Shown: positions 3,638-62,273, numbered from the stretch's first letter. The stretch: DNA of 64,000 nt from an uncultured Planctomycetia bacterium (GCA_964506845.1 CAZDNS010000001.1:5618-69617), one strand, 5' to 3'. A program made the numbers and translations. Notes: a model not told the origin generated them from the letters alone.

Positions 3638-5199
3638 GTCCTGATAAAAAAAGACAGAGCTGGGCATCCCGGCTTGGCATAATACTGGCAGTTGCAGGAA
3701 GCGCAGTAGGGCTTGGAAATTTCCTGAGGTTTCCTGTGCAGGCGGCCTCAAACGGCGGCGGCGCCTTTATGATACCCTATTTCATATCCCTGCTTCTGCT
3801 CGGCATACCGCTTATGTGGATAGAATGGACAATAGGCCGTTTTGGAGGAGGTTTTGGCCACGGGACTGCGCCGGGGATATTCCATTCCCTATGGGAGAAA
3901 AACAGGTTCATCAAATATTTCGGAGTAATTGGAATATTCGGGCCATTAGTCATTTTTATATACTATACCTATATAGAATCCTGGACGCTTGGATACAGTT
4001 TTTTTGCGCTTTTGGGGAAATACGAGGGGATAAAGACCCAGGCGGGTATGCAGAGTTTCCTGAGCGCCTATCAGGGCTTGGAGAAAAACCAGTTTTTTAA
4101 CAGTATTCTGCCTGCATATATCTTCTTTTTGATAACCTTTATATCGAATATTGTAGTGGTATATTTTGGCGTATCAGGAGGGACTGAAAGGCTATGTAAA
4201 ATTGCGATGCCTGTCCTGCTAATAGCGGGAATTATTATGGCTATAAGGGTCCTGACCTTGGGTATCCCTGATTTGTCAAGGCCTGACTGGAATTTGGTAA
4301 ACGGCCTGGGGTTTTTATGGAACCCGGATTTTTCGGTCCTAAAAAGCGCAAGAGTATGGCTTGCTGCATCCGGCCAGATATTTTTTACATTGAGTGTGGG
4401 AATAGGCGTGATTTTAACCTATGCCAGTTACTTAAAAAAGGCGGATGATGTGGCGCTCTCGGGGCTGACTGCCGTAAGCACAAATGAATTTGCCGAGGTA
4501 ATCTTGGGAGGAAGCATAGTAATCCCTGCCGCATACGTATTTTTTGGCCCGGTTGAGATAGCAAATATCGCAAAGGGCGGCGCCTTCAACTTAGGTTTTG
4601 TAACGATGCCTTTAGTCTTACAGCAAATAAACTTCAGCGCCTTTTTTGGCTTTGTATGGTTTTTGCTTTTGTTTCTGGCAGGCGTTACCTCCAGCGTCTC
4701 TTTGATGGAACCTGCTATCGCATTTATGGAGGATGAGTTCGATATTGGCAGAAAAAAAGCGGTTATCATATTTGCAGGAATTTCCTTTATCCTGTGCCAG
4801 CCTGCGATATTCCTTTTAAAACACGGGGTGGTAAACGAGCTGGATTTCTGGGGAGGGACATTCTGCCTGGTTCTGTTCGGGACAGTCGAGGTTATATTAT
4901 TTGCCTGGGTATTCGGAATGGAGAATGCCTGGACGGAAATACACCACGGCGCGGATATAAGGATACCGGATATTTATAAATTCATCATAAAATACATAAC
5001 CCCGCTATTTTTATTCCTTATACTCGGATTCTGGTTTATTCAAGAAGGAATTCCCACCATATTTATGAAGAACGTTGCGGCCGCTGATAAACCCTTTGTC
5101 TTAGGAACAAGGATAGGGCTTTTCATTATCCTTTTGATATTTGCAATAATGGTTAAAATCGCCTGGCGTAAAAAGAGAATTAACCCCGTTAGAGAATAA
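3634..5199 (+). CDS. sodium-dependent transporter, neurotransmitter:sodium symporter (SNF) family
   Basis: 521 aa, multi-TM. N-terminal motif RLGIILAVAGSAVGLGNFLRFP is typical of NSS family. Confidence 0.8.
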   Translation: MSPDKKRQSWASRLGIILAVAGSAVGLGNFLRFPVQAASNGGGAFMIPYFISLLLLGIPLMWIEWTIGRFGGGFGHGTAPGIFHSLWEKNRFIKYFGVIGIFGPLVIFIYYTYIESWTLGYSFFALLGKYEGIKTQAGMQSFLSAYQGLEKNQFFNSILPAYIFFLITFISNIVVVYFGVSGGTERLCKIAMPVLLIAGIIMAIRVLTLGIPDLSRPDWNLVNGLGFLWNPDFSVLKSARVWLAASGQIFFTLSVGIGVILTYASYLKKADDVALSGLTAVSTNEFAEVILGGSIVIPAAYVFFGPVEIANIAKGGAFNLGFVTMPLVLQQINFSAFFGFVWFLLLFLAGVTSSVSLMEPAIAFMEDEFDIGRKKAVIIFAGISFILCQPAIFLLKHGVVNELDFWGGTFCLVLFGTVEVILFAWVFGMENAWTEIHHGADIRIPDIYKFIIKYITPLFLFLILGFWFIQEGIPTIFMKNVAAADKPFVLGTRIGLFIILLIFAIMVKIAWRKKRINPVRE

Positions 5200-5335
5200 A
5201 GTTCTTTAACCCCGTTAGAAAAGAATTTTGTAATTGGGCGAGTGGTGCGCAATGACGATGATTTTAAAACTCATTATAAGTAATCTACGCATAACGACTA
5301 AAAGTCAAAGGTTTTCTCTAACGGGGTAAAACCCC
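5182..5335. repeat. MITE-like inverted-repeat element, copy 1 (AACCCCGTTAGAGAA ... TTCTCTAACGGGGT)
   Basis: Left arm at 5182-5196 also supplies the last codons (INPVRE*) of the transporter. Partial second left arm at 5208-5225. Right arm at 5314-5327. Confidence 0.6.
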
Positions 5336-8096: not shown

Positions 8097-9122
8097 TTGA
8101 TTAAATGTGCGGTTGTGGGCGCAACAGGCTATGCGGGAGAAGTTCTATTAGAACTTTTATTAAAACACCCTAAGGTAAAACTGACCAGCCTTTATGCCAA
8201 GGTAGATTCTGCTCAACCAATATATAATTTTTTCCCCAAGTTTTATGGACGGCTTAATCTATTATGTAAGCCTTTGGAAATAAAAGAGTTAAATAAAAAC
8301 TCTGATTTTATCTTTCTGGCTTTACCCCATAAGGTGTCAATGGAGATTGTTCCGCATATATTACAAAAGGGGAAACGGATAATAGACTTAAGCGCTGACT
8401 ACAGGCTCACGGATTTAGCGATTTATAAAAAATATTATGGGGTAGCTCATCAGGATAATGGAAACATTAAAAAGGCAGTTTATGGTATTCCGGAACTGTA
8501 TAGAAAGAAAATAAAAACCGCTACACTAATAGCAAATCCGGGGTGTTATCCTACAGCCGCAATTTTAGGACTTGCGCCGTTATTTGCTAAAAAGAACCTG
8601 ATAGATATTAACTCCGTCATAATAGACGCAAAATCCGGCTTTACCGGCGCAGGCAGAAATCCAATTGCTCATTTTATATTCTCCGAGGTAAACGAGGCTA
8701 TTAAACCGTATAAGGTTAATGTCCATCAGCATTCTCCTGAAATAGAGCAACAACTCGGCCTTATCGCAGGTGAAAAAATAAGGGTAACATTTGTTCCGCA
8801 CCTTATTCCTATTGACAGGGGAATAATCAGCACGATCTATATAAGGTTAAAGAAGTTAGCAGGCATAGAAGAATTGTTTAGACTATATGAAAATTTCTAC
8901 AAGGGTGAAAAATTTGTAAGAATACTTCAAAGCGGTAAATTCCCTAATTCAAAGGATGTATTAGGAACCAATTTCTGCGACATTGCGCTAAGCCTGGATA
9001 TAGAAAAAAAACAGCTAATAGTAATAAGCGCTATTGATAACCTTATGAAAGGCGCAGCAGGACAGGCCCTTCAGAATATGAATATAATGTGCGGTTTTGA
9101 CGAAACCATTGCTCTAAAGTAA
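8097..9122 (+). CDS. argC: N-acetyl-gamma-glutamyl-phosphate reductase
   Basis: AVVGATGYAGEVL N-terminus. Likely TTG start at 8097 after AAGGAG. The track ORF begins at 8055. Confidence 0.85.
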   Translation: MIKCAVVGATGYAGEVLLELLLKHPKVKLTSLYAKVDSAQPIYNFFPKFYGRLNLLCKPLEIKELNKNSDFIFLALPHKVSMEIVPHILQKGKRIIDLSADYRLTDLAIYKKYYGVAHQDNGNIKKAVYGIPELYRKKIKTATLIANPGCYPTAAILGLAPLFAKKNLIDINSVIIDAKSGFTGAGRNPIAHFIFSEVNEAIKPYKVNVHQHSPEIEQQLGLIAGEKIRVTFVPHLIPIDRGIISTIYIRLKKLAGIEELFRLYENFYKGEKFVRILQSGKFPNSKDVLGTNFCDIALSLDIEKKQLIVISAIDNLMKGAAGQALQNMNIMCGFDETIALK

Positions 9123-9262
9123 ACCCCGTTAGAGAACTTTGTTTTCTAACGGTATTGTGTTGATGATGGCTTTCCTGTCTACCGACAGGTAGAAAACCAC
9201 CATCGAACTTATAAGGTGAAAGCAGTTGGTTAAGTCAGTGGTTTTCTCTAACGGGGTAAAAA
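9122..9262. repeat. MITE-like inverted-repeat element, copy 2
   Basis: AACCCCGTTAGAGAA at 9122-9136 and TTCTCTAACGGGGT at 9244-9257. Internal palindrome CCTGTCTACCGACAGGTAG. Lies between argC and argJ. Confidence 0.6.
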
Positions 9263-9270
9263 ACTTACGA

Positions 9271-10473
9271 ATGAGATTATGTGATGGCGGTATTTGCGCG
9301 CCAAGGGGATTTCTGGCTTGCGGGGTATATTCGGGGATAAAGAATAAAGGGCTTGACCTTGCCTTAATCTATACAAAGTCTTGGGCAAAAACCTTTGTCC
9401 TGTTTTCCGAAAATCAGATACAGGCTGCGCCAAACCTGATTACCAGAAAGAGAATTTCAAGAAATAAATCTGCCTGCGCAGTTCTGATAAACAGCGGAAA
9501 TGCAAATTGCCTTACCGGAAAAAGGGGGTTGCTTGATGCAGAGGAAATCACTGCCTCTCTGGCTAAAGCCCTGGGGATAAACAAAGAGCTGGTAATCTGC
9601 GCCTCTACCGGAATAATCGGAAGAAGGCTTCCTGTTGAAAAAATAAAAAGGGCTATTCCTAAATTAGTTGACAGTTTAAGCGCAAATGGAAGCAATCTTG
9701 CTGCAAGGGCAATTATGACCACAGATATAGCCAGCAAGGAAATAGCCGTAATTTTTGAAATAGGCGGTATTTCGGTAAAGATAGGGGCTATTGCAAAGGG
9801 AGCAGGTATGATTTCGCCTAACTTAGCTACAATGCTCTGCTTTATCTCAACGGATGCAAATATAACGTATAATGCCCTTAAAAAGGCGCTTAAAGAAGCA
9901 GTAGGGTCTTCATTTAACAGAATAACAATTGACGGCCAGATGAGCACAAACGATATGGTTACAATAACAGCAAATGGCATAGCAGGAAATCCTGTTATAA
10001 AATCTGATACAAGGGATTTTAAAATATTCTGCTCGGCACTAAGTTTTGTCTGTGAGCGCCTTGCGAAGAGTATTGTTAAGGACGCTGAGGGCGCTACCAA
10101 GTTTATAGAGATATCTGTAAAAAATGCGCTTACAAAACAAGAAGCTTTTAATATCGCAAGGGCTATAGCAAATTCGCCGCTGGTTAAGACTGCCTTTTAC
10201 GGAGAGGATCCGAATTTCGGGAGGATACTTGCAGCAGCAGGCGCTGCTTCAAAGAGAATAAATTTAGAAAGATTAAAACTTTTTATACAGGGCGTGCCTG
10301 TGTTTAAGAACGGGGCTATCTCTAACTTTAATTTTAATAAACTCAGGCAGAAACTAAAAAAAGAAAATATAAACGTAACACTGGATCTGGAAACAGGAAA
10401 AGAAACCTTCAGGCTCTGGACCTCGGACCTGACAGAGGAATATGTGAGGATAAACTCGGCTTATTCAACCTGA
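9271..10473 (+). CDS. argJ: bifunctional ornithine acetyltransferase / N-acetylglutamate synthase
   Basis: ATML autocatalytic cleavage motif (PNLATMLCFISTDA). Start moved to ATG 9271 (MRLCDGG...) so the CDS does not cover the repeat. Confidence 0.85.
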   Translation: MRLCDGGICAPRGFLACGVYSGIKNKGLDLALIYTKSWAKTFVLFSENQIQAAPNLITRKRISRNKSACAVLINSGNANCLTGKRGLLDAEEITASLAKALGINKELVICASTGIIGRRLPVEKIKRAIPKLVDSLSANGSNLAARAIMTTDIASKEIAVIFEIGGISVKIGAIAKGAGMISPNLATMLCFISTDANITYNALKKALKEAVGSSFNRITIDGQMSTNDMVTITANGIAGNPVIKSDTRDFKIFCSALSFVCERLAKSIVKDAEGATKFIEISVKNALTKQEAFNIARAIANSPLVKTAFYGEDPNFGRILAAAGAASKRINLERLKLFIQGVPVFKNGAISNFNFNKLRQKLKKENINVTLDLETGKETFRLWTSDLTEEYVRINSAYST

Positions 10474-12511: not shown

Positions 12512-13434
12512 AAAAAGATTTAATCTCAATAAACGATTTGACCGCAGGAGAAATTACTGAAATTTTTGAGCTTGCCGACGAGATCAAGGGCAATGGAAAA
12601 AAATTCGAAAATCACCTTTCTAAGAAAACCCTTGGACTTATATTCCAGAAGCCTTCGAACAGGACAAGGGTTTCTTTTGAGGTAGGTATGACCCAATTAG
12701 GAGGCCATTCAGTTTATCTTGGGCCTGAGGATATAAAATTAGGGGTAAGGGAAGCGGTAAAAGACGTGGCAAGGGTCTTGTCAAAGTATCTTGACGCAAT
12801 TGTGGCAAGGACATTTTCCCATAGCGATATTGCGGAACTTGCGAAATTCTCTGCTATTCCTGTTATAAACGGTTTAAGCGACCTTATGCATCCCTGCCAG
12901 GCGCTCAGCGATATCTACACCATAAGAGAAAAAACTGCAAAAATCAGGAATATCAAACTTGCTTATATCGGAGACGGAAACAACGTGTTAAATTCACTCA
13001 TGGAGGCGGTAAGTAAGTTAGGATTATATATATCCATAGCGACCCCTAAGGGTTACGAGCCCGATAAAGAGATTTTAAAAACCTCAAAGAAAAATGCTCT
13101 AAAGAGCGGTGCAAGGATAACTTTTTCCAATAATCCAACTGAAGCAGTAAAGGATGCGGATTTTATATACACCGATGTCTGGACCAGCATGGGAAAGGAG
13201 CATGAAAGAAAGGCAAGGCTAAAGGCGTTCAAGGGTTTTCAGGTTAATTCAAGCCTAATAGCAGGGTGCAAAAAAAAATGCCTTATAATGCACTGCCTGC
13301 CTGCCCACAGGCAGGAGGAGATTACCGATGAGGTCCTGGACAGCCCTAATTCCATAGTCTTTGAGCAGGCAGAAAACAGGCTTCACGTTCAAAAGGCAGT
13401 TCTGATACTGCTTCTGGAGAGACGGAGAAAATAA
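12508..13434 (+). CDS. argF: ornithine carbamoyltransferase
   Basis: STRTRVSFE carbamoyl-phosphate motif and HCLPA ornithine-binding motif. Confidence 0.8.
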   Translation: MKKDLISINDLTAGEITEIFELADEIKGNGKKFENHLSKKTLGLIFQKPSNRTRVSFEVGMTQLGGHSVYLGPEDIKLGVREAVKDVARVLSKYLDAIVARTFSHSDIAELAKFSAIPVINGLSDLMHPCQALSDIYTIREKTAKIRNIKLAYIGDGNNVLNSLMEAVSKLGLYISIATPKGYEPDKEILKTSKKNALKSGARITFSNNPTEAVKDADFIYTDVWTSMGKEHERKARLKAFKGFQVNSSLIAGCKKKCLIMHCLPAHRQEEITDEVLDSPNSIVFEQAENRLHVQKAVLILLLERRRK

Positions 13435-14351: not shown

Positions 14352-16570
14352 AATGGCTTTTTTTTATTTCCATTTTTTTAGTTTTTGTTTCTTATGGACA
14401 TAAAAACTCTCTTGCGCAAAATAATGGCCAGGTATCAAAAATAGAAGTAGATGGAAACGTAAACATCGAGAAAGAGGAAGTAGTGAAAACGCTAAAAACG
14501 TATATCGGCGAAGAGATTGACCGCAAAAAACTTCAGAAAGGAATAGCTTCGCTTTATGAACTCGGATTCTTTGAAGATGTTAAAATGAGAGCGGTTGAAA
14601 CTGACGAGGGCATAGCCATCATTACTACTGTCCAGGAAAAACCCGAGCTTAAGAACCTGCGTTTCAGGGGGAATAAATTTGTTTCTCCCCGGCTTATTCA
14701 GAGGGTTCTTATGCTTCAACCTCAGGAGAGGAAGTTTGTTGACCGTAAGCTCTTGGATAACTGCACCGATAGGATACTTAGGCTTTACAGAGACTCGGGA
14801 TATTATTTTGCGCGGGCATATCCCAGGGCGGAAATAGACGAAAAGACTAATGAGGCGTCTGTTACATATATGATCGAAGAGGGTAAACGGATAAAGGTAA
14901 AACGGATAATGGTAGCGGGAAATAAGCGCTTCGCAAGCGGGGAAATTCTTAAATCGATGTCTACCAAAGCCGGCGGCTTTTTTTCTAATGATATATTTTC
15001 CGATGAAGAGCTATCGGCGGATATAAAGAAAATCAGCTCTTTATACCATTCTGACGGATACATAAAGGCAAAGGTTTCGCACAGCCTGTTCTTCGATGAA
15101 AAAAATGAGCATGTTGCGATTCTTATAGTAATTGACGAGGGTATCCGCTATAGCGTGGGTAAAATCTCTGCAAGGGGTAATACCGCTTTAGAGGGGGCAA
15201 AATTTGAAGAGTTGTTTCTGCTAAAAGAGGGGGAGGTTTTTAACCACGATAAACTACTCAAAGGTATAAACAACCTGAATTCCTTTTATTCCAGAAACGG
15301 CTTTCTACTTTCCCGCATTGAATATGCTTTAACTTACCACGATAATGAGCTTAAGGCGGATGTGGAGGTAAAGATAATTGAAAACAATCCCTATACCATA
15401 AACAGGATAATCGTAAAGGGAAACCAAAAGACAAAGGAGCGGATAATAAAGAGGTTTTTGCTTGTCAGAGAGCAGGAAATCTTTGACGGCTATAAGATAT
15501 TCCTTACCCAGAGGCGGTTACAGGAATTAGGTTATTTTAAAAAGGTATCCATTTTAACGCAACAAACCAAATTTCCCGATAAAAGAGACCTTTTAATTGA
15601 CTTGGAGGAGGGCGGCACAAATATGTTTGAGGCAGGGCTTAAATACAGCACTGCCTACGACCTGGGATTTTATGCCAGATTCGATGAAAAAAATCTATTT
15701 GGAAGGGCTCAGAGATTAACCCTTAAAAGCCAAGTCGGAGGAAAGAAAGAGAACGTAACCTTAAGTTTTATTGAGCCTTATTTATTCGAAAGGGATTTAA
15801 GGCTAAAAACCGACCTCTATGGAACCGAGTTAAATATTCCGAGAAGATACTTTAAGGAGAGAAGAGCAGGCGGAGACATTATTTTTACAAAACCGTTGTT
15901 TGGATACACATTTGGCAATCTATCCTACAGATTCGAGGAGGTAAAGGTATTTGATGTAGGGACTGAGGTAAGTGACTATATATTGCCCGGAAAGACAAAT
16001 CTTGCAAGTGTAACAGGTGCCTTGGTAAGGGATACGCGGGATAGTTATTTTTATCCCTTGAGGGGCTCACTTAATAGCGTAGACTTTGAAACCTCAGGAG
16101 ATTTCTTAGGCAGCGATTATAATTTTATTAAATCTGCAGGTGAATCAAATTATTACTTTAATTTGTTAGGCCAGACTGTATTTCTGGTTCGCCTAAGGCT
16201 AGGAATAGTCAGCGGATTCAATGAAAAAAAAGTGCCCCTCTTTGAGAGGTTCTATCTGGGTGGCGCAAACACTATCAGGGGATACGAGGAGGGTGAAATT
16301 GCGCCACGCTTTGGCGGAAAGGCAATGGGTATTGTGAATTTGGAATACAGAATACCGCTTACAAAGAATAAGACGTTTATAAACAGCCTTTTCTACGATG
16401 CGGGTAATTCCTGGGAGGCTATCAGAGACCTTGACATCGGAGACCTAAAGCAGGGATTGGGAACTGCTTTAACATATAATTCCAGATTTGGAAGAGTAGG
16501 TTTGACTTATGGATATGGCATAGATAAACACAAGGATGAAATATACGTAAATATCGGAAATAACTTTTAA
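14348..16570 (+). CDS. bamA: outer membrane protein assembly factor BamA (Omp85 family)
   Basis: 740 aa. Signal peptide, repeated POTRA-like modules, C-terminal beta-barrel ending in aromatic-rich strands. Sits directly after surA-like. Confidence 0.75.
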   Translation: MKWLFFISIFLVFVSYGHKNSLAQNNGQVSKIEVDGNVNIEKEEVVKTLKTYIGEEIDRKKLQKGIASLYELGFFEDVKMRAVETDEGIAIITTVQEKPELKNLRFRGNKFVSPRLIQRVLMLQPQERKFVDRKLLDNCTDRILRLYRDSGYYFARAYPRAEIDEKTNEASVTYMIEEGKRIKVKRIMVAGNKRFASGEILKSMSTKAGGFFSNDIFSDEELSADIKKISSLYHSDGYIKAKVSHSLFFDEKNEHVAILIVIDEGIRYSVGKISARGNTALEGAKFEELFLLKEGEVFNHDKLLKGINNLNSFYSRNGFLLSRIEYALTYHDNELKADVEVKIIENNPYTINRIIVKGNQKTKERIIKRFLLVREQEIFDGYKIFLTQRRLQELGYFKKVSILTQQTKFPDKRDLLIDLEEGGTNMFEAGLKYSTAYDLGFYARFDEKNLFGRAQRLTLKSQVGGKKENVTLSFIEPYLFERDLRLKTDLYGTELNIPRRYFKERRAGGDIIFTKPLFGYTFGNLSYRFEEVKVFDVGTEVSDYILPGKTNLASVTGALVRDTRDSYFYPLRGSLNSVDFETSGDFLGSDYNFIKSAGESNYYFNLLGQTVFLVRLRLGIVSGFNEKKVPLFERFYLGGANTIRGYEEGEIAPRFGGKAMGIVNLEYRIPLTKNKTFINSLFYDAGNSWEAIRDLDIGDLKQGLGTALTYNSRFGRVGLTYGYGIDKHKDEIYVNIGNNF

Positions 16571-16574
16571 AAGA

Positions 16575-16706
16575 GGTAACCGCAAAAGCGCAGAATAACC
16601 ATCAAAACGCAAAATATCCTATAGAAGCGCAAAGAAAGACTTCCGCGTTTCAGTGTTTACTAATTTAGCGATTTAATGGTTACAAATTTTGCGTTTCAGC
16701 GGTTGT
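16575..16706 (+). promoter_or_regulatory. conserved upstream cassette, copy A (GGTAACCGCAAAAGCGC ... AGCGGTTACAAATTTTG ... CGTTTCAGCGGTTG)
   Basis: Member of a 4-copy family (46234, 48355, 61877). Ends 18 bp before the ATG at 16724. Confidence 0.6.
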
Positions 16707-16723
16707 AAAGTAGGAGTGTGTAA

Positions 16724-17344
16724 ATGAAAAAAAATCGTTTAGTACCGGTAACGGTAATATGTATATTTATGGCTACAGGTAATTTATATGCGGAAAAACT
16801 GATAATAGCCGATTTTAACAGGGCGACACACAGAAACAATCTTGGAGATGATTTTGGCGTATGGGGACCTGATCCTGCGTACTGTGTTGTAGGAATAAAA
16901 GATAGTTTTGACGGTAATACCAAGCATGGCGATGAAGGAAATTCGCTCAGGCTTGAATATGACATAGAAACTGAGGACAATTATGGGGGTTATTCGGATG
17001 TTTCGAACCCTTCGGAAGAAGCATATAATGGTTTCTGGATGAAGCTAGGAAAGGCAGATACAGAGGGTTTCAATAAGTTGGTATTTTTTGTAAAAGGTGA
17101 TGAAACAACAGATTATACCAGCAGATTCAGGGTTGAAATAAGAAACTCAAAAAATGAGTTGGGCCGTTACCTGATCACCGATATTACGGATGAGTGGAAA
17201 ATGGTTACAATACCATTTTCCGATAAGGCAGGCATTAGAGATTGGTCAAGGCTTGCAGAATTTAATATAAAATTTGATACGACAAATTGCGATACCAAGG
17301 TTGGAGCCATGTATATTGACGATATTTATCTATCAAACGAATAA
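16724..17344 (+). CDS. secreted hypothetical protein (possible jelly-roll / carbohydrate-binding fold)
   Basis: Signal peptide MKKNRLVPVTVICIFMATGNLYA, 206 aa. No catalytic motif. Confidence 0.4.
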   Translation: MKKNRLVPVTVICIFMATGNLYAEKLIIADFNRATHRNNLGDDFGVWGPDPAYCVVGIKDSFDGNTKHGDEGNSLRLEYDIETEDNYGGYSDVSNPSEEAYNGFWMKLGKADTEGFNKLVFFVKGDETTDYTSRFRVEIRNSKNELGRYLITDITDEWKMVTIPFSDKAGIRDWSRLAEFNIKFDTTNCDTKVGAMYIDDIYLSNE

Positions 17345-37956: not shown

Positions 37957-38098
37957 AGACACAACTTATGCCTGCCTGTCGGCAGACAGGGAATGCAATG
38001 ACATAAGCTGTGTGTCTGAATTTACCCTTGACATCTTCGATGTCAAGGGTCCAACTCGCACAGCAACTTATGTTCACTTTGTTCCATAAGTTGTGTGC
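37957..38098. promoter_or_regulatory. nested inverted-repeat cassette, copy 3, carrying an inserted GC palindrome
   Basis: CCCTTGACATCTTCGATGTCAAGGG at 38024-38048. CCTGCCTGTCGGCAGACAGG at 37971-37990. Outer arms GAAGACACAACTTATG / CATAAGTTGTGTGCT. Confidence 0.5.
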
Positions 38099-38388: not shown

Positions 38389-39539
38389 GGAGTTTATTTC
38401 TAGTATTTACTATATTCTTTTTCTTTTCCATGGCAGCAAGCCCCGTTAGAGAACAAAATTCTCTAACTGCCTGGGCTGATAATGATTTTAAATCACCATT
38501 GGCTTTAAACAGTAACGACCCCAGATTAAAGTCGGCGGCTTTCTCTAACGGGGTAAACGGACAGGAGAACAAGCCTTTTATTGGAGAGATAACTTCTGAC
38601 AGGGTAAATGTAAGGGCAGGCCCGGATTTAAACTTCGAGATAATATATAGCCTCGATAAAGGCCAGAAGATAGAGGTTAAAGAGGAACAGTTCGGCTGGT
38701 ACAGGATACAGCTGCCAGAAGAGTGTGTTCTTTATATAAATAAGGAATTCGTAAGCAAGGATGCGGATAATTACCTGGCAAAAGCGGAAGGGGTAAACGT
38801 AAGGTCGGGGGCAGGTTTTGAATTTAACGTAGTGGGGCAATTATCAAAGGGAAGCAAAATCGAGGTTATCAGGGAGGAGCTTAAGTGGTACGGTATAAAA
38901 GCGACGCCCGATTGCTCCGGATGGGTCAATTCAAAATATATAAGATTTTATGAAACTATGGAGAAGTATAAGCTCGACCTGGCGAGGAAAGAGGCGGCAG
39001 GGAAAAATTATTCTAAGATACTATCAAATTATACCCGCGAGTTAAAACAAAATATATCCGATATGAAACTTGAGCCAATCCGTGCGGATTTTGAAAGATT
39101 TCTTGTTGATTATCCCGATACGCCCCAGGCAAAACTAGCCCAAGAAAAAATAGACGAAATAAATTTAAAATTACTCGAAATAGAACATCTAAAGACGAGG
39201 GAGAGTTTAAAAGAAGCCCGGCAGGAATTTAGAGAGGCGAAGAGACTAATAGATGAAAAAATATCTCTCATAGATAATATAGCCCAAATAAAAACTAACG
39301 TAAGAAAGGACCCGCCAGCCTACGTTGGGACAATAGAGGATGTCGGTATTTTATGGAACAGGCCTGCCAGGCATAAACTCTGCAATGAGAATAAAGAAAT
39401 CTTATGTTATCTTGCATCAGAAAAAATAGATTTAAACCGATTCATTTACAGAAAGGTAAGACTATGGGGAAAGGCTGAACCCCTACCCAACTCAGAGAAG
39501 AAATTGCTAAGGGTAAGTTATCTGGAAGAAATGGATTAA
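38385..39539 (+). CDS. secreted protein with two bacterial SH3 domains and a coiled-coil C-terminal region
   Basis: Signal peptide. SH3b-like VNVRAGPDLNFEII..WYRI and VNVRSGAGFEF..WYGI. MITE-like element copy 3 lies in frame after the signal peptide. Confidence 0.55.
   Translation: MRSLFLVFTIFFFFSMAASPVREQNSLTAWADNDFKSPLALNSNDPRLKSAAFSNGVNGQENKPFIGEITSDRVNVRAGPDLNFEIIYSLDKGQKIEVKEEQFGWYRIQLPEECVLYINKEFVSKDADNYLAKAEGVNVRSGAGFEFNVVGQLSKGSKIEVIREELKWYGIKATPDCSGWVNSKYIRFYETMEKYKLDLARKEAAGKNYSKILSNYTRELKQNISDMKLEPIRADFERFLVDYPDTPQAKLAQEKIDEINLKLLEIEHLKTRESLKEARQEFREAKRLIDEKISLIDNIAQIKTNVRKDPPAYVGTIEDVGILWNRPARHKLCNENKEILCYLASEKIDLNRFIYRKVRLWGKAEPLPNSEKKLLRVSYLEEMD
38439..38558. repeat. MITE-like inverted-repeat element, copy 3 (inside the SH3-protein reading frame)
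   Basis: AGCCCCGTTAGAGAA at 38439-38453 plus adjacent hairpin partner TTCTCTAAC. Right arm TTCTCTAACGGGGT at 38541-38554. Confidence 0.55.
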
Positions 39540-42634: not shown

Positions 42635-44464
42635 ATGAAAAATCCTATCTCTCTGCCAATCTTCACCATATCAGCATATAGGTCTTTTAGGGCACTGCTT
42701 ATAATTACCTCTGTCTTTATTTATACTATTTCTTTCAACTGGTATAATCCTTCATTTTATCTATTTATGTTATGCTGCTACAGCTATTGCTTTTCTTCTG
42801 TTGCGAGCCTCTTCGCCCATTTTCTGATTTATATCTTCTCTAAAGGTGTTATTCTTAATGAGAAGGAGGAAATAATAAATCCTGGGATCCAGCCATCGGT
42901 AAATATCGCCTTTTTCAGGCCAATATTTGCAAAAACAACGCAAGAAATGGATATCCTGCTTAACAGCATGGAAAAGGACATCATTAATAATCAGGAGCCC
43001 TCTAAGAATCTAAAGTTTATATTAATAGATAATACGAGGGACGAGTCGGTTAAGGCATATGCAAGAAAACGAATAAGGGAGCTTGAGGAGAAATTTGGAG
43101 ACGAGGTCGTCTATTATTTTCATAGGAATCCAAAATGCGATTTCTTTAAAAAGGTGGGGATATTAGAGGATGCTATAATGCTTCTTTCCTACGGATGGAC
43201 AAAACCAAGGGTTTATACCTCTAAAAAATGGGACACATGGACTAAAGGTACTAGAAATCCTAATGAACCCATCTTTGATGAAATCCTTGGTGAACCTACT
43301 GCTTTTGGCCTTGAGGCAAGAGCCGAAGATATAATTAAGGGAAATGATATCACGGTAGATGAAAAGAAAAAAATAAAAATAGCCTTTGTCTGCGATGCAG
43401 ACAACTACTGGCCAGCCGGCCAGATAAGAAAAATAGTGGCAAAAATATTACATCCCGACAATAAGGATATCGTAATATACCAGCCGTCTATCGAGATTTC
43501 AAACCCGGAGGACAACGGCTACATAAAACTCACGGTTCTGGCAAGGCTTATGTACGGGTTTGACTCTCTTGTAAAATGGAGGTTGTTTAGATTTTCTCCT
43601 TTCTACGGAAAGGGGGCTATAGTTGTAGAGCCCTATATAGACGGGATTATCTTGAAGGAGTGGCTCCATCCAGGAAAGGCGGCGAGCCACGATTTCCAAG
43701 AATCACTTAATGCTTGGACGGCTTTAGTGGAAGATGTATATATTATGGAAAAAACCTTTTCTAACAAAATATCCGAACTCATAAGAAATGCTCTGTGGAG
43801 CTGGGGAGACATGGAGACAGTCAAGCAGTTTTTATTTAAAAAGTTCCGGGCAGGCAAGAAGACCCACTTATTTGTCCTCCTTAGGAACGTAATCGGCCCA
43901 ATGGTATTTAGCCTTTGGCTAATAGGCACTACTGTTTCTTTTCTTGTAAAAGGGCTTAGCGAACTAAAGAATCCGGGTCTTTTATTTTCGCTCTTTAGCA
44001 TAATAATCTTTATCTCTGCGGTGATTCCGAAATTTGGGGTTCCTTTTATTTATAAATACAAGGCTAAAACCTATGCGCCTCCTACGCTACTACCGTTGGA
44101 TTTTTTAAGCATAATTAAAAACGGTCTAATAGAGTTTTTATTCTCGGTCGGAATACACGGCCTTGATTTAGTATACAAGCCTATTGCTTCTGTTCAAAAC
44201 CTCATAAAGCAATTCTTGGGTGTATCGTATGTATGGAAAACGGGGGCGATGGGCGAGATAGAAACTGCTGATATATCCCTGATTAAGACGTACAAAATCC
44301 TGCATCTGTCAACTGTTATCGGCGTAATGTTGTTTCTTTTGGCGATTTTTAAGGTTTTCCCGGTAATTCTAAGCATTATATTGTCTCCATTTATATTCTC
44401 TTTTATTCTTGGGCCTTGTTTAATCTGGGCTACTTCGAAACGAGTAAAATATCTTAACGCATAG
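42635..44464 (+). CDS. polytopic membrane glycosyltransferase, GT2 / OpgH-like (tentative)
   Basis: 609 aa. N- and C-terminal TM bundles flank a cytoplasmic domain with FILIDNTRDE and VCDADNYW (DxD-like) and GFDSLVKWR. Confidence 0.4.
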   Translation: MKNPISLPIFTISAYRSFRALLIITSVFIYTISFNWYNPSFYLFMLCCYSYCFSSVASLFAHFLIYIFSKGVILNEKEEIINPGIQPSVNIAFFRPIFAKTTQEMDILLNSMEKDIINNQEPSKNLKFILIDNTRDESVKAYARKRIRELEEKFGDEVVYYFHRNPKCDFFKKVGILEDAIMLLSYGWTKPRVYTSKKWDTWTKGTRNPNEPIFDEILGEPTAFGLEARAEDIIKGNDITVDEKKKIKIAFVCDADNYWPAGQIRKIVAKILHPDNKDIVIYQPSIEISNPEDNGYIKLTVLARLMYGFDSLVKWRLFRFSPFYGKGAIVVEPYIDGIILKEWLHPGKAASHDFQESLNAWTALVEDVYIMEKTFSNKISELIRNALWSWGDMETVKQFLFKKFRAGKKTHLFVLLRNVIGPMVFSLWLIGTTVSFLVKGLSELKNPGLLFSLFSIIIFISAVIPKFGVPFIYKYKAKTYAPPTLLPLDFLSIIKNGLIEFLFSVGIHGLDLVYKPIASVQNLIKQFLGVSYVWKTGAMGEIETADISLIKTYKILHLSTVIGVMLFLLAIFKVFPVILSIILSPFIFSFILGPCLIWATSKRVKYLNA

Positions 44465-45989: not shown

Positions 45990-46150
45990 GGATTAGTGGA
46001 GTCCCTCGGCCTATCCCTCGCAACTTGGCTCGGGATGGTGAGCGAAGTCGAACCAAAGGCCGAGGCTCCCTCCCGAGCAGAAAGAACAATATGGCATTCA
46101 TCCCTCGGGCTAAAGCCTGTGGATTCCTGCGAGGGATTGATAATTTTTTA
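45990..46150. other. GC-rich region with long-range complementary segments ending in a T-run (candidate small RNA)
   Basis: TCCCTCGCA(46010)/TGCGAGGGA(46128), CCTCGGCC/GGCCGAGG, GCTCGGGA/TCCCGAGC, then TTGATAATTTTTTAA. The overlapping ORFs 45863..46168(+) and 45784..46101(-) are low-complexity. Confidence 0.25.
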
Positions 46151-46233
46151 ACCCACAGAGCCGTATAAAGTTAAGATAATATAAAAGACTCTTGACATAT
46201 AAACGCGCAAATATTAAAATAAAGCAAAAAAAG

Positions 46234-46402
46234 GGTAACCGCAAAAGCGCAGAATAACCACCAAAGCGCAAAATATCCCTGCCTGTCGCCTGCCTGACGG
46301 TAGTCAGGGCAGGCGCAAAGAAAGACTTCTGCGTTTCGGCGTTTACTAATTTCGCTATTTAGCGGTTACAAATTTTGCGTTTCAGCGGTTGCAAAAAAGG
46401 AG
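46234..46402 (+). promoter_or_regulatory. conserved upstream cassette, copy B (with palindromic insert CCTGCCTGACGGTAGTCAGGGCAGG)
   Basis: Collinear with copies A, C and D. Followed by hairpin GTGCT..AGCAC, then GAAGGAGG and the ATG at 46440. Confidence 0.6.
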
Positions 46403-46439
46403 TGCTTTGACTACGCTCAGCACTTCGAAGGAGGTAAAA

Positions 46440-46823
46440 ATGGATAATGTATATACAGGCGAAGAAAAAAGACAGTTCTACAGGGTTAACTATGAAAAAG
46501 AACTTAATTTTGACAAATTTATTGGCTCAAGCGTGTCTGGTACCAACTCAGGGATAAGCAAAAATATAAGCCAGTCAGGGATATTAATCCAGACAGATAA
46601 CCCGCCATCTATATCAAACTTATTATGGATAAGCCTTGATTTAAGGACACTCAATATCTGCCAGGAAATAGAGCAGAATGCCCTGATTATCAAAAACGGA
46701 GTAGTTGGAAAGGTTGTCAGGCTTGAAGAATCTAAAACTGCTGAAGGAAGCTACGATGTAGGTGTGTGTTTTCTTAAAAAAGGCTCATCCATGGAAGAAA
46801 AACTGGCAAAAGCGCTTGTTTAA
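46440..46823 (+). CDS. PilZ-domain protein
   Basis: KRQFYR (RxxxR) and NISQSG motifs. Start at ATG 46440 after GAAGGAGG. Confidence 0.6.
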   Translation: MDNVYTGEEKRQFYRVNYEKELNFDKFIGSSVSGTNSGISKNISQSGILIQTDNPPSISNLLWISLDLRTLNICQEIEQNALIIKNGVVGKVVRLEESKTAEGSYDVGVCFLKKGSSMEEKLAKALV

Positions 46824-46986: not shown

Positions 46987-47357
46987 AGGCTAAATATTAA
47001 TTTTTAATCAAAATCAATGACTTCTATTGGATATTCTATTAACGTCCTATAATATATCTTATGTTAACTATAATCACACAATAAATTTTATGTAAGTTAT
47101 TGTAATTAAAGAAGATATGTTAAAAAATGCGCAAGCTGTTAATATATGGCAGGAATTACTTTCTAGTTCTTATCTCAACAGGTAAATAACCACTATCTAA
47201 TTGGGGAAGTCTTACCCCATTTATTGAGACTATGTTCACATCATTTGCTGTAACCGCATTGGCCGATATGGGGTGAAAAATACCCTTAATCAGATTAAAA
47301 AAAAGGCCAATTGCTATCAGGGTTAAAATTACCTTTGAATAGGTATCCAGTTCAATT

Positions 47358-47894
47358 TTACTCTTCATAGAGATATCTCCTCCTTTTTTTGGCAATTTCT
47401 CTTATTCTGGTTCTATCAAACAACCTATCTATATCGAACTTGTTATATATCCTGAATAATAAAAAATAGGTAAAGGGCGATGCAGTTTTATTATTTATGA
47501 GGTCTAAAAGTAAATGGTGAGAATATCCGATACTTATTCCCAATACTACCATATTTTTGCTAAAAAATAACAGCCATAACCATAATGCTAAAACTATCTC
47601 AAAAGAGTGTAGGAATAAATAAACCTTATCAAAATTAACCTCAAAAAAAAGGCGCATTACTTTCCTGGGTTTCAACTTATAACAACCATACCTAAAATAC
47701 TCAAAAAGATGGTCTATGTCTATAAATACGCCACAAACAAGGTTAGAGATAGATATGGAAAGACAGTTAAAATAATTTAGCAGTAAAAGGCTAAATCCAC
47801 CTGAAATTACCAGATGATGTAATGGCCCTATGGGAAAAATCTCCTTAAGATTTATCCGCCTTCGCACTTGCCTGCCGCAGACAGGGAAAGCCAC
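47358..47894 (-). CDS. polytopic membrane protein (possibly DUF457/YdjM-like metal-dependent hydrolase)
   Basis: 178 aa, 4-5 TM helices, conserved His/Asp cluster (IDIDHLFEY, HHLLLD). Confidence 0.35.
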   Translation of the reverse strand: MAFPVCGRQVRRRINLKEIFPIGPLHHLVISGGFSLLLLNYFNCLSISISNLVCGVFIDIDHLFEYFRYGCYKLKPRKVMRLFFEVNFDKVYLFLHSFEIVLALWLWLLFFSKNMVVLGISIGYSHHLLLDLINNKTASPFTYFLLFRIYNKFDIDRLFDRTRIREIAKKRRRYLYEE

Positions 47895-48050
47895 ACCTGT
47901 CCTTCGACGAGCTCAGTATGGTGAGCCCTTCGACTCCGCTCAGGGCAGTGAGCCTGTCGAACTGCATGGTCGAACCATAAAGGTGTGGATGTCCGCCACG
48001 AATCTTGGCGGATGCTTCGGCGGGTTTCGCCCGATATGTTCATATGGGGC
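47895..48050. repeat. GC-rich intergenic segment with ~28-bp imperfect tandem units and hairpins
   Basis: CCTTCGACGAGCTCAGTATGGTGAGCC / CTTCGACTCCGCTCAGGGCAGTGAGCC / TGTCGAAC, CCGCCACGAATCTTGGCGG. Confidence 0.4.
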
Positions 48051-48051
48051 T

Positions 48052-48354
48052 TCACTTCTTGGCAGGAATCTCGATGCCCCCTGCATTCATTTTCTCAAAA
48101 ACAGGGCAACTTTTTACAAGGTTACATCTTTTTAATTCAAAACAGGCCTTTTTTGCTCCTATATAGAGAAGTCCTCCAAGACTACAAACTATTATGACAA
48201 TGGAGACAAAAACGCCAAGTTTTTTTGCTGCCCCCTTCTCTTTTATAGCCGTGATAAATACCTTATACCCCAGCGCAAGGGTAAGTAAATACAGCGCCCA
48301 GTTTATACCTGTGAATTTGCCATGATGCCAGAAAAAACCTTTTAAATCCTCCAT
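48052..48354 (-). CDS. small membrane protein, hypothetical
   Basis: 100 aa, two TM helices. Start at 48354 with AAGGAGG RBS, directly preceded by cassette copy C. Confidence 0.35.
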   Translation of the reverse strand: MEDLKGFFWHHGKFTGINWALYLLTLALGYKVFITAIKEKGAAKKLGVFVSIVIIVCSLGGLLYIGAKKACFELKRCNLVKSCPVFEKMNAGGIEIPAKK

Positions 48355-48503
48355 ATCCCCTCCTTTTTTGCAACCGCTGAAACGCCTGTCTGCCGACAGG
48401 CAGACAAAATTTGTAACCGCTAAATAGCAAAATTAGTAAACGCCAAAACGCAGAAGTCTTTCTTTACGCCTCTGCCGATATTTTGCGCTTTGGCGGTTAC
48501 CCC
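48355..48503 (-). promoter_or_regulatory. conserved upstream cassette, copy C (contains GTCTGCCTGTCGGCAGACAGG insert)
   Basis: Reverse complement aligns with copies A, B and D. 20-nt palindrome at 48385-48406. Confidence 0.6.
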
Positions 48504-48694
48504 TTTTGTTTGGTTAATTACATACAAAAAAGGCTGCGAGACTTTGGGTTCGCTCAAACTTGTGACAGCCGGGTCACCTTTTTAAATTTCCTTAGCGCTC
48601 AATAGTCTCACAGCCAGCTAAACTCTACCATATCGAACAGATTTTGTCAATAGCAGTATTTAAAATTTAAGAAACGAGAAATATTTATAATTAA

Positions 48695-48875
48695 CCGAGG
48701 GGTCGGGAAGTTTTTGTGTTTTTAGACCCCTCATCCTGAGGAGTAAAGCAACGAAGGATCTCATAGATCCTTCAGCCCTTCGGGCTTCCCCGGCCCGCTC
48801 CGCTTTGCCGGGGCGGGCAGGATGAGAGCCCTCGGCGAAAAAATAGAGAAAAAACTCCCCGAGAGCTCAATTAAC
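48695..48875. repeat. GC-rich ~100-nt structured repeat, copy 1 (CTCATCCTG ... GAAGGATCTcataGATCCTTC ... CAGGATGAG), terminator-like position
   Basis: Core at 48730-48827. Flanked by CCGAGGGG / CCCCGAGAGCTC arms. Lies 3' of the 48888..49961(-) gene. Confidence 0.5.
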
Positions 48876-60034: not shown

Positions 60035-61873
60035 TCAAAATCTTTTCTTTATCCCTGAGTAAAGCGAAAATGCCGCTGTAGCGTATCCCCTTACCTCCTC
60101 GTACTTTTTGTTCAGAAGATTTTCTATCGTGCAAAAAATATCAAGGTCGTCTGATAATTTATATGTAGCGGACAAGTCTACGCGCGCATACGGCTTCATC
60201 TTAAAGGTATTTGCCGTATTATCCCAGCGATGACCAAAATAATTTACGAGGAGTGTGGGCTTTAAATTTTTAATAAAATCCAGGTTTACATTAAGGCTTA
60301 ATTTATCCTTCGGCCTTCTTGCCAGCTCCTTGCCTGTAGAATTATCACGCGTATTCATCCTTGTGTATGAACAGTCTAAACTTAATTTTTCAAAAGGCCT
60401 AAAAGAGGTATTTAGCTCAACCCCTGCGGTCTTTGCCTTTCCTAGATTTTTATATCTGTTCGTATCAAAATCATAATCCACCATATTTTTAAACCTGTTA
60501 TTAAAATAGCCTGCTCCTAAAATAAGGTTCTTGGTAAAACCCTGTTCTATGGCAATATCATAATTTGTGCTTTCATCAGGAGACAAATTTGCATTACCAT
60601 AGGTAGGGTCATAGAGCTGGAAAAGGGAGGGCGCCTTAAAACCTGTTCCAAGGTTTGCCTTAAAGCGGGTATCTGTTTTTTGGATATGATAGGCTGAGGA
60701 TACCTTGTAGTTTGTATCCGAACCAAAGCTTGAGTGCTCATCAACCCTTATGCCCGGAGTAATAAATAATTTCTCCCATAACTTAAGCTGGTTCTGCAGG
60801 TAAAAGGCTTTATTGTTGATATGCCTCCTGTCCACATCTCTATGCGCTCCTCTTTCTTCCTCATATTCAAAGCCACCTGTTAAGGTATCTATTTCTGCGA
60901 TAAAAAGGTTGTGCTGCCAATCTATTTTTTTGTTATTTCCATAATACCAGTCATCATATGCGTCGGTTAAGTCTTTTGAATCAGGGTCATCCCTGTATCG
61001 TCTTTTAACATCAAGCCAGCTAAGGCCTAAGCTTTGCTCCCAAAAATCCTTAATTCTGTCGGTAAACTGGGTTTTAAGGGCAAGGGAATTGTTATTAACG
61101 GTATAATTCGGGTCATCATCATAGGCGGCATCGTCTATATCGGTATCGGAATTCGTATATCGCAAGATGAAATCCAGTTTTTTTTCTTCTGATATATTAA
61201 AACCCATGCGGCTTAAAAGCGTGGAATTTTCGTAACTGTCCTCTTCCTGTCCGTCTTTTGCCTTTGAGAATCCATCGGAATCAACCCTCGAAATAGAAAG
61301 CGAATGGTTTATCTTAGAGTTACCACCGCTTACCGAGAGATACTCCCTAAAGGTCTTGTAGGAACCTGCCTCGCTTGAAATTTCAAATTTAGTCTTGCCT
61401 GCCCCTTTCTTTGTTACTATATTAACCACGCCACCTATGGCATCTGAGCCATAAAGAGTAGATTGGGGCCCCCTTAAAATCTCTATCCTTTCTATGTTGT
61501 CAGGGGTTAAGTAGGCAAAATCAAAAGCCCTTCCTGCTGACATAGGGTCATTCATCTCTATGCCGTCTATCATAACCAGGGTATATTCGGGTTTAGCGCC
61601 CCTTAAAAAAACAGAGGTTTGGCCGCCCAAACCGCCTGTCTGAACAACGTTAAGCGAAGGAACGGTCCTTAATATATCCAAAACCGTGCTCTTAGCGCTT
61701 CTTTTTATATCCTCAACTCCTATTACGCTGACAGATGTGCCTAATCCTTCAATAGCCTCCTCTGTCCTGGTTGCACTCACCACAATCCTCTCAAGCCTCA
61801 CCTCTTCTGCTAAAACAATACCAGCCAAAAATAACACCATAGCCATAACATAAGTCTTTATCAAATACCGCAT
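60035..61873 (-). CDS. TonB-dependent outer-membrane receptor (BtuB-like, cobalamin-riboswitch controlled)
   Basis: Signal peptide, TonB box/plug (ERIVVSATRTEE), 22-strand barrel ending in terminal F. Start at ATG 61873 after GGAGGA. Confidence 0.8.
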   Translation of the reverse strand: MRYLIKTYVMAMVLFLAGIVLAEEVRLERIVVSATRTEEAIEGLGTSVSVIGVEDIKRSAKSTVLDILRTVPSLNVVQTGGLGGQTSVFLRGAKPEYTLVMIDGIEMNDPMSAGRAFDFAYLTPDNIERIEILRGPQSTLYGSDAIGGVVNIVTKKGAGKTKFEISSEAGSYKTFREYLSVSGGNSKINHSLSISRVDSDGFSKAKDGQEEDSYENSTLLSRMGFNISEEKKLDFILRYTNSDTDIDDAAYDDDPNYTVNNNSLALKTQFTDRIKDFWEQSLGLSWLDVKRRYRDDPDSKDLTDAYDDWYYGNNKKIDWQHNLFIAEIDTLTGGFEYEEERGAHRDVDRRHINNKAFYLQNQLKLWEKLFITPGIRVDEHSSFGSDTNYKVSSAYHIQKTDTRFKANLGTGFKAPSLFQLYDPTYGNANLSPDESTNYDIAIEQGFTKNLILGAGYFNNRFKNMVDYDFDTNRYKNLGKAKTAGVELNTSFRPFEKLSLDCSYTRMNTRDNSTGKELARRPKDKLSLNVNLDFIKNLKPTLLVNYFGHRWDNTANTFKMKPYARVDLSATYKLSDDLDIFCTIENLLNKKYEEVRGYATAAFSLYSGIKKRF

Positions 61874-61876
61874 TAT

Positions 61877-62041
61877 ACTATCCTCCTTTTTTGGAACCGC
61901 TGAAACGCCTGTCTGCCGACAGGCAGACAAAATTTGTAACCGCTAAAACGCAAAAGTTTCTTTGCGTCTTTGCGCCTACCTACCCTGACTACCGTTAGGC
62001 AGGCGGCGGGTAGGGATATTTTGCGCTTTTGCGGTTACCCC
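61877..62041 (-). promoter_or_regulatory. conserved upstream cassette, copy D, between the riboswitch and the receptor gene
   Basis: Aligns with copies A-C. Contains GTCTGCCTGTCGGCAGACAGG (61908-61929) and a CCTACCCGCCGCCTGCCTAACGGTAGTCAGGGTAGG insert. Confidence 0.6.
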
Positions 62042-62230: not shown

Positions 62231-62273
62231 TTATATCTCTTAAAGAACTCTGTTAAATTAGCGAAACTTATAC

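Follow-up and report, generated by a model that had tools for sequence, protein, structure and literature searches.

A MITE-like repeat element inserted next to ribosome-binding sites in a bacterial genome with affinities to Candidatus Omnitrophota

Why should one small non-coding cassette stand in front of four genes that have no functional link with each other? The question is raised by a 64,000-nucleotide (nt) stretch of DNA from an uncultured Planctomycetia bacterium (GCA_964506845.1 CAZDNS010000001.1:5618-69617), termed here the window, in which such a cassette is found at positions 16575–16706 and at three further places, each time shortly before a start codon. Homologues of the TonB-dependent receptor encoded at the fourth place that carry source names point to Candidatus Omnitrophota. 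The original prediction took the cassette to be a portable promoter or 5′-leader module, or an operator array that defines a regulon. The analysis given below replaces this regulatory hypothesis by a mobile-element one: the cassette is an insertion at all four loci, and it is probably a non-autonomous transposable element of the MITE type (miniature inverted-repeat transposable element), with a non-coding core of ~130 nt, and the four genes that it precedes are unrelated.

The four copies, of 132–159 nt each, align end to end and display a pairwise identity of 89%–97% at aligned positions. Copy A (16575–16706, + strand, 132 nt, GGTAACCGC...GCGGTTGT) is the most diverged; copy B (46234–46392, + strand) has a length of 159 nt, copy C (48370–48501, − strand) of 132 nt and copy D (61893–62039, − strand) of 147 nt. 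Searched with an nhmmer profile of the four copies, the 64 kb give matches at these four places and at no others (E = 1e-51 to 3e-34). Three conserved blocks give 4–5 matches each in the window with up to three mismatches, where 0.00–0.15 are expected from dinucleotide-preserving shuffles. Thus the four copies stand where the original prediction had placed them, with ends refined to 46392 (B), 48370–48501 (C) and 61893–62039 (D). Pfam searches also agree with the naming of the genes behind them, i.e. a CBM11-like protein (A), a PilZ protein (B), a 100 amino acid (aa) protein without Pfam match (C) and the TonB-dependent receptor (D).

The evidence for insertion comes from syntenic contigs of relatives, whose proteins are 70%–91% identical where this was measured. 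All four loci are empty in these relatives, i.e. the element is absent. Locus D shows this most directly. The window has a 147-nt element there between ATTAAAAAGG and AAAAAAGGAGGATAGTATAATG. In contig L007, with a receptor 91% identical, the same promoter, aptamer like that of the AdoCbl (adenosylcobalamin) family and terminator as in the window are followed directly by the Shine-Dalgarno (SD) sequence (...GGGTTTTTTATTAGGAAGGAGGATGGTATAATG), and in L008, with a receptor 70% identical, the terminator also leads directly into the SD (...GGGTTTTTTAATTTAGAAAGGGGGATAATGTAATG). A third contig, L009 (GCA_016867055.1), was reached via a 72%-identical partial receptor and has the gene order of the window; neither locus B nor locus C holds the element in it. 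At locus B it keeps a TTGACA-17-TAAAAT promoter ahead of the PilZ gene, and at locus C a TTGACA promoter and a structured leader ahead of the 100-aa gene. At locus A, a relative 83% identical (L010) has 17 nt only between the bamA stop codon and the ATG, AAGAGAGGCGTATATAA. Because the orthologous sites are empty at all four loci, the cassette is an insertion. The high identity between the copies, while a relative with a 91%-identical receptor is without the element at D, indicates that the element spread recently in the lineage of the window.

A Logan contig that carries the PilZ gene (L001) breaks inside the element, as is expected when an assembler meets a multi-copy repeat. A look-up of the 100-aa protein and of the receptor, aimed at population variants with empty sites, gave no exact record for either. 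As a separate observation, the spacer downstream of bamA in a 71%-identical relative (L011, positions 2602–2721) has different GC-rich palindromic repeats, similar to those at 46100–46137 of the window. The same intergenic site thus appears to have been colonised independently by other repeat families.

MITEs are of small size and have terminal inverted repeats, strong secondary structure and target-site duplications (PMC3049150). The cassette is likewise small, below the ~300 bp taken as the upper bound for a MITE, and non-coding, it has terminal inverted repeats and near-identical dispersed copies, and related genomes differ in its presence, at the four loci of the window as well as at a fifth one in Candidatus Omnitrophota MAG323, which is described below. 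The element has no conserved open reading frame. Copy B is without any ATG, and the one internal ATG, in copy A, opens a 10-codon frame private to this copy; a leader peptide was rejected as an explanation, since this short frame is found in copy A alone and stems from private mutations.

The collinear blocks that the original prediction saw as shared by the copies are indeed shared, and all of them turn out to be iterations of a single 16-nt motif, GCGTTTCAGCGGTTAC. The motif is carried in the arms of the element, in one to three copies each, as GCGnTTnnGCGGTTAC. The unit is a direct sub-repeat (GCGTTTCA / GCGGTTAC) and not a palindrome. The right arm consists of three head-to-tail direct units with a 23-nt period in copies A, B and C, and of two in D; the units of the left arm are inverted, and there are two of them in copies A and B but a single one in copies C and D. 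The arms meet at a short centre, GCGCAAAGAAAGACTTCTGCG. The direct units U1, U2 and U3 are at 16645–16660, 16668–16683 and 16691–16706 in copy A (centre at 16627–16647), at 46331–46346, 46354–46369 and 46377–46392 in copy B, and on the − strand at 48451–48436, 48428–48413 and 48385–48370 in copy C; the two of copy D are at 61951–61936 and 61908–61893, also on the − strand.

With their outermost units, the arms end in imperfect terminal inverted repeats, GGTAACCGCAAAAGCGC ... GCGTTTCAGCGGTTGC. When the right-end unit GCGTTTCAGCGGTTGC is reverse-complemented, the left end GGTAACCGCAAAAGCGC agrees with it at 12 of 17 positions; agreement of the left end with the U2-type unit is 14 of 16. The two ends pair with each other in all predicted folds. 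The nhmmer profile also matches the reverse strand of each copy, and hence the element is a large imperfect palindrome. The complementarity between the first block and a later one, which the original prediction had pointed out, is thus real and corresponds to an inverted-repeat architecture (GGTAACCGC against GCGGTTAC).

Palindromic inserts between the blocks, also described in the original prediction, are present; they are however not part of the cassette but belong to a separate family of hairpins that resemble repetitive extragenic palindromic (REP) sequences and have sites elsewhere in the window. This hairpin, CTGCCTGTCGGCAGACAGG with its variants, displays a 7-bp stem and a GGCA or GGTA loop. 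It is found at seven sites (9174–9192, 13293–13315, 37972–37990, 46290–46308, 48385–48403, 61908–61926 and 61984–62002), and the first three are outside the cassettes and far from them. A 20-nt copy is located exactly between U2 and U3 in copy C (48404–48385) and in the same place in copy D (61926–61908), and a larger variant adjoins the left arm in B (~46279–46313) and in D (62003–61979). This hairpin family has other repeats as its insertion targets, three of the four cassettes among them, which explains the “modular inserts.”

Each copy in the window is flanked by purine-rich direct repeats of 6–8 bp that are AAAAAAGG-like; the left junction is uncertain by 1–2 nt, there being a G run at the boundary. 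Copy B displays AAAAAAGG on both sides (46227–46234 and 46393–46400, + strand, 8/8 positions), the right-hand one being followed by AG to give GGAG at 46399–46402. Copy C has ACAAAAGG on its left (48502–48509, − strand) and AAAAAAGG on its right (48362–48369, 7/8), and the latter overlaps the SD, GGAGG, of the 100-aa gene. The repeats of copy D are TAAAAAGG (62040–62047, − strand) and AAAAAAGG (61885–61892, 7/8), and here the right-hand one overlaps the GGAGG of the receptor gene. Copy A has AAAAGAGG on the left (16569–16576, + strand) and AAAGTAGG on the right (16707–16714, 6/8). Its left repeat is native sequence, also found in the empty site of L010, and has the final A of the bamA stop codon (TAA, 16568–16570) as its first base. 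The right repeat of copy A overlaps the SD, GGAG, at 16713–16716.

A target-site duplication of 6–8 bp is probable from these alignments. Two comparisons argue that the repeats are duplicated target and not element sequence. Copy A has an interrupted A-run in both flanks (AAAAGAGG / AAAGTAGG), and this is found once in the empty site (AAAAGAGAGG). For copies C and D, the empty sites are matched best when ~8 nt are removed along with the element; the reconstruction for D has exactly the length of the L007 sequence. A model without duplication needs an indel of 3 nt at D and of 5 nt at C, and the ~8-nt model needs none at D and 1 nt at C.

The right-hand repeat runs into ...AGG, so that no gene loses its ribosome-binding site, an A-rich GGAGG at a normal distance from the ATG. 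The right-end GGAG lies 7 nt from the ATG at 16724 (A), 5 nt from that at 48354 (C) and 9 nt from that at 61873 (D). The gap between element end and start codon is 15–19 nt in these three copies. For copy B the two distances are 37 nt (ATG at 46440) and 47 nt, because a secondary insert of 25 nt, TGCTTTGACTACGCTCAGCACTTCG (46403–46427, + strand), separates copy B from the SD and ATG of the PilZ gene. The genes are located at 16724–17344 (+ strand, CBM11-like protein of 206 aa), 46440–46823 (+ strand, PilZ protein), 48052–48354 (− strand, 100-aa protein) and 60035–61873 (− strand, TonB-dependent receptor). The 25-nt insert has AAGGAG on both sides and appears to be a further small element, whose insertion hit a Shine-Dalgarno sequence and apparently duplicated 6 bp; a motif related to it is present at 47928–47944 and at 46037–46053.

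Outside the window one true relative was found in all, from two scans of genome contigs and one of metagenome contigs. It is a 93-nt sequence in Candidatus Omnitrophota MAG323 (L015 positions 1843–1938, identical to L052 positions 9898–9993; nhmmer E = 1e-9), with inverted and direct units, two of each, and a centre of the same kind. The MAG323 copy is inserted between parA and the SD of parB (GCGGTTAC|AGGAGGcaatATG). The closest relative available (L051, ParB 76% identical) shows no element there, and its parA TAA is followed by 12 nt and AGGAGG. The orientation of the MAG323 copy, taken from the strand with the best profile match, is opposite to that of the gene. The parA frame in MAG323 runs into the element and ends at a TAA inside it, and thus the insertion has replaced the last parA codons.

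The relative came from a genome-contig scan with the pattern GCGGTTRCN7GCGNTTNNGCGGTT, which yielded 39 matches, about the estimated chance number; the profile fits L015 alone among them. An exact-pattern scan of the genome contig collection (GGTTACAAATTTTGN{0,30}CGTTTCAGCGGTT) gave no match. Four matches from a relaxed-pattern scan of metagenome contigs were rejected as chance, all of them being inside unrelated coding sequence. A degenerate two-unit pattern gave no match in viral contigs, and a blastn search of the PLSDB plasmids with the consensus element was also negative.

All five insertions, the four of the window and that of MAG323, adjoin a Shine-Dalgarno sequence. With the elements removed, a start codon follows within 20 nt at ~10% of the intergenic positions of the window, and four out of four would be found at such positions by chance with a probability of ~9e-5. 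Thus placement is non-random, and there is an apparent preference for ribosome-binding sites. The passive mobile repeat that the original prediction named as the outcome to be set against its own proposal is essentially what is found; the random placement that would go with it is not, as every copy adjoins an SD. Non-coding room is small in this compact genome, e.g. 17 nt at locus A and ~25 nt from terminator to ATG at locus D, and the SD region is often the sole non-coding DNA on offer.

The four copies of the window also share their orientation relative to the downstream gene. This may be chance (p = 0.125), or orientation may be tied to the gene strand or the replication strand. GC skew and gene strand both flip at ~48 kb, and orientation with respect to replication is therefore inseparable here from that with respect to the gene strand. 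The switch of both from + to −, with converging genes, occupies positions ~47000–48000 and represents either a replication terminus or a mere strand switch; positions 47000–47350 are AT-rich, and a 178-aa open reading frame at 47358–47894 has no Pfam match.

A stronger proposal is that the transposon family targets the ribosome-binding site itself, i.e. an A-rich tract plus GGAGG on the coding strand, and rebuilds a working SD upon insertion. This is offered tentatively, as a possibility that falls somewhat short of being the expected one. If it were true, it would describe a mobile element adapted to the lone non-coding niche that is found before nearly every gene of a compact genome, and a strong 5′ stem-loop would be placed ahead of many cistrons.

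Several points weigh against a MITE with a duplicated target at ribosome-binding sites. A Pfam search shows no transposase domain in the 40 window proteins tested, and the nhmmer profile detects no extra element ends in the 64-kb window, nor a full-length parent, which would be bounded by the outer ends GGTAACCGC...GCGGTTGC. The element is not AT-rich (39%–52% GC, the window having 40%). The direct repeats are nearly one sequence in B, C and D, and the A-run may partly be the element's own; length bookkeeping at copy A fits a duplication of 6 bp or less; no convincing direct repeat was found in a search around the MAG323 copy. The 8-mer AAAAAAGG is also found at intergenic places other than ribosome-binding sites, and these are unoccupied. 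The number of copies examined is small (n = 5). From the lack of a transposase and of extra ends in the window, the element would be non-autonomous, with a partner that is elsewhere or lost. From the unoccupied 8-mers, a preference for the 8-mer alone is insufficient to give adjacency to ribosome-binding sites, and a longer target that includes GGAGG, or selection, must contribute.

Some of these points would suit a different kind of mobile element. A single-strand (Y1/HUH) element, derived from IS200/IS605 or of the REPIN/RAYT type, would make no target duplication, would land 3′ of a sequence such as AAGG with a fixed orientation, and the A-run at the right end would be its own. The near-constant flanks (AAAAGG on the left, AAAAAAGG on the right) agree with this, as do the folding of the element into hairpins and the fact that the four window copies have one orientation with respect to GC skew and the strand of the gene; the MAG323 copy shows no recognisable duplication, and copy A fits slightly better with little or none. 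Such an origin is nevertheless unlikely. The ends of the element are mutually inverted repeats and not two different subterminal hairpins, and the 16-nt motif, unlike REP units, is no palindrome. The empty sites of C and D are best rebuilt by removing ~8 nt, the flanks of copy A share a locus-specific sequence that is single in the empty site, and the MAG323 copy is inverted with respect to both the gene and the presumed direction of replication. An assignment to REPIN or REP-RAYT systems was rejected on similar grounds: the unit is not palindromic, flanking direct repeats are present, and there is no Y1 transposase domain among the proteins tested.

The regulatory reading takes the cassette for a portable promoter or an array of operators: a transcription factor would bind to the 16-nt motifs and so join the genes into one regulon. 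In its favor are the direct and inverted motif repeats with their regular 23-nt spacing, which resemble multiple protein-binding sites, and again the constant orientation in the window. Where the copies are located with respect to native signals speaks against it. A promoter-like site of the PilZ gene (46192–46220, + strand, TTGACA-17-TAAAAT, 11/12 matches) is 14 nt upstream of copy B and is also present in L009. Copy C is downstream of both a promoter-like site (48622–48650, − strand, TTGACA-17-TAGAGT) and the structured leader that follows it. Upstream of copy D, on the − strand at 62055–62237, there is an AdoCbl-like aptamer (62237–62085) followed by a terminator-like hairpin (62076–62055), and copy A is inside the bamA operon. 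Because it is downstream of native promoters or of a terminator, or inside an operon, the element should be co-transcribed as part of the leader or intercistronic RNA.

A consensus scan for sigma-70-like promoters (−35/−10 hexamers with a 16–18-nt spacing) shows none inside any of the four copies. A sigma-54 promoter was considered by eye and rejected, as the GG...GC spacing in U2–U3 is 1 nt too long. Orthologues in the relatives have the same promoters and leaders without the element. The number of units differs between copies, and hairpins of 20–35 nt, between units in C and D and beside the left arm in B and D, shift the spacing. The downstream genes are without functional link, and the MAG323 copy has the opposite orientation by its best profile match. 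A regulatory module is thus quite improbable. From the original prediction, “portable” stands, the insertion being absent from relatives at all four loci, and so does “5′-leader,” given that copies B and C come after native promoters and copy D after the terminator, and that copy A stands within the bamA operon. The promoter function, including the alternative promoter suggested for copy D, is not supported by a sigma-70-like match in any copy. The operator array is not supported either, given the varying unit number, the spacing broken by nested hairpins, the unrelated genes and the orthologues that do without it.

The cassette at locus D was said to be between a cobalamin riboswitch terminator and the receptor gene, and this is the case, the aptamer being a sub-threshold match to AdoCbl (40.1 bits, E = 9e-6; the gathering score is 50). 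The orthologous leaders of L007 and L008 are also below the AdoCbl gathering threshold, and it seems that this clade carries a divergent cobalamin aptamer which standard annotation would miss. The leader at locus C is of interest in its own right. At 48530–48650 (− strand) the promoter TTGACA-17-TAGAGT is followed by a conserved structure of ~95 nt with an 11-bp closing stem and a U-run, before the 100-aa gene. A near-identical structure is found in L009 (8660–8790, + strand), where the closing stem differs by one compensatory change and one wobble change. On the strand of the leader Rfam gives no match, even at E ≤ 10. This leader is a candidate for an uncharacterised riboswitch or attenuator.

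The remaining explanation, a functional structured RNA leader (a stabilising stem-loop, or a processing or protein-binding site) that was spread by duplication and kept by selection, is the least probable of all and hardly to be expected, as its folding well below the level of shuffled sequences, the position of the SD outside the closing stem in four of four copies folded alone and the location of all copies in transcribed regions are outweighed by the lack of an Rfam family at gathering thresholds, a covariation of about zero, an antisense strand that folds about equally, relatives that do without the element, a varying internal architecture and the prediction that the SD of copy A is mostly paired once a longer stretch is folded.

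In the predicted folds the two ends pair and close the structure; the energies range from −42 to −74 kcal/mol, with z between −3.0 and −6.0. The differences between sense and antisense folds (−2.7, +6.5, −4.1 and −10.9 kcal/mol) show no consistent strand bias, as is expected for an inverted repeat at the DNA level. A check for covariance, proposed in the original prediction to reveal conserved RNA structure, was uninformative on five sequences and lent no support to a fold at the RNA level: the covariation term of RNAalifold is +0.16, and the few double changes in the alignment stem from the aligning of paralogous units. Rfam searches of the window at gathering thresholds gave no family match, and searches of the D and C leaders in E-value mode gave nothing beyond the sub-threshold AdoCbl aptamer. 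Accessibility of the SD in longer contexts ranges from 0.05 to 0.77, depends on the context and is not used as evidence.

For the MITE-type element, a mechanism can be proposed by analogy with multi-site transposon ends. The copies of the 16-nt motif would be bound by a transposase that comes from a gene elsewhere and works in trans. Staggered cuts would be made at a purine-rich target, the A-rich stretch with the first Gs of a Shine-Dalgarno sequence, and insertion would duplicate ~6–8 bp (AAAAAAGG-like). One copy of the duplication would be left upstream as an orphan, and the other would stay joined to ...AGG-N5-9-ATG, so that the ribosome-binding site is kept. The co-transcribed element may then fold into a long hairpin with paired ends that does not involve the ribosome-binding site. 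As the duplicated target is A-rich on the sense strand, A's and not U's come after the hairpin, and sense transcription should for this reason not meet an intrinsic terminator. The insertion at locus D lies beyond the riboswitch terminator, on its downstream side, and B12 control should therefore be retained. A regulatory effect, if any, on mRNA stability, processing or translation would be a by-product.

Short repeats of comparable kind are known. Correia/NEMIS elements (Neisseria), ERIC sequences (enterobacteria) and RUP (Streptococcus pneumoniae) duplicate TA or other short targets. Like these, the element is 100–170 nt long, has no open reading frame, and has terminal inverted repeats and a strongly base-paired predicted fold; dispersed near-identical copies, direct repeats and a location in co-transcribed 5′ leaders or intercistronic sites are also common to them. 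Unlike them, it has a purine-rich repeat of 6–8 bp and is directly 5′ of an SD in five of five cases; it shows no sequence similarity to them, its arms are iterated 16-nt units and not one long inverted repeat, and it is not AT-rich.

The ends of Tn7, Mu and IS21 have several transposase-binding motifs of ~20 nt, which are direct within an arm and inverted between arms; copies can abut in one arm and be spaced in the other, and Tn7 and Mu duplicate 5 bp. The motif of the element shows the same arrangement, direct within an arm and inverted between arms. In contrast to these transposons, the element is ~130 nt long and without associated genes, it has no TGT...ACA or TG...CA termini, and its repeats are of 6–8 bp and not 5 bp. 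BOX elements of Streptococcus pneumoniae are modular (boxA-boxB(n)-boxC), intergenic, transcribed and hairpin-forming (PMC3049150). The element is also modular and intergenic with a variable number of internal units, but all its modules are one motif, direct and inverted, its size varies partly by nested foreign hairpins and partly by unit number, and it differs from BOX in sequence and in the phylum of its host.

A possible parent family is IS66, whose members have inverted repeats of 20–30 bp starting with GTAAGCG, and 8-bp direct repeats (PMC11946415); one example of an end is GTAAGCGTCCGGCGAACTCACCTT (PMC12888890). The element starts with G-GTAACCGC, where six of the first eight bases agree, a match too short to exclude chance, and its repeats are of ~6–8 bp. 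No IS66 transposase (TnpC) is among the 40 window proteins tested, and IS66 ends are not known to carry iterated subterminal motifs. By sequence, IS66 is a weak lead.

A literature search for MITEs in connection with Candidatus Omnitrophota found no paper. The element appears to represent a new family of MITE-like repeats, whose one unusual feature is that ribosome-binding sites are consistently the place of insertion, and a family of this type is documented here in Candidatus Omnitrophota. Copy D is a clean example of a MITE located between a riboswitch terminator and the gene under riboswitch control. Should the preference for ribosome-binding sites extend over the genome, it would be an unusual and noteworthy choice of target. 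It could then be a source of variation in expression between strains, and annotation errors would be possible, i.e. false long leaders, and assembly breaks just upstream of genes, as in L001.

The genome of the window has at least four small intergenic repeat families that are absent from the compared intergenic sites of relatives, and it may be a useful case for the study of how repeats expand in a small genome. Another MITE-like family, with copies of ~125–150 nt that are bounded by inverted repeats CCCCGTTAGAGAA / TTCTCTAACGGGG, is found at 5180–5331, 9120–9261 and 38437–38558. The third copy is within the 5′ part of an open reading frame of annotated length that encodes an SH3-domain protein. 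Elsewhere in the window, positions 42635–44464 (+ strand) encode a 609-aa open reading frame that has no Pfam match at E ≤ 1e-5. A GC-rich, hairpin-rich repeat of 102 nt is present twice, at 48725–48826 and 63825–63926, with 95% identity. One of these copies is located between a DUF362 gene and the promoter of locus C, where the spacer measures 533 nt, against 187 nt in L009.

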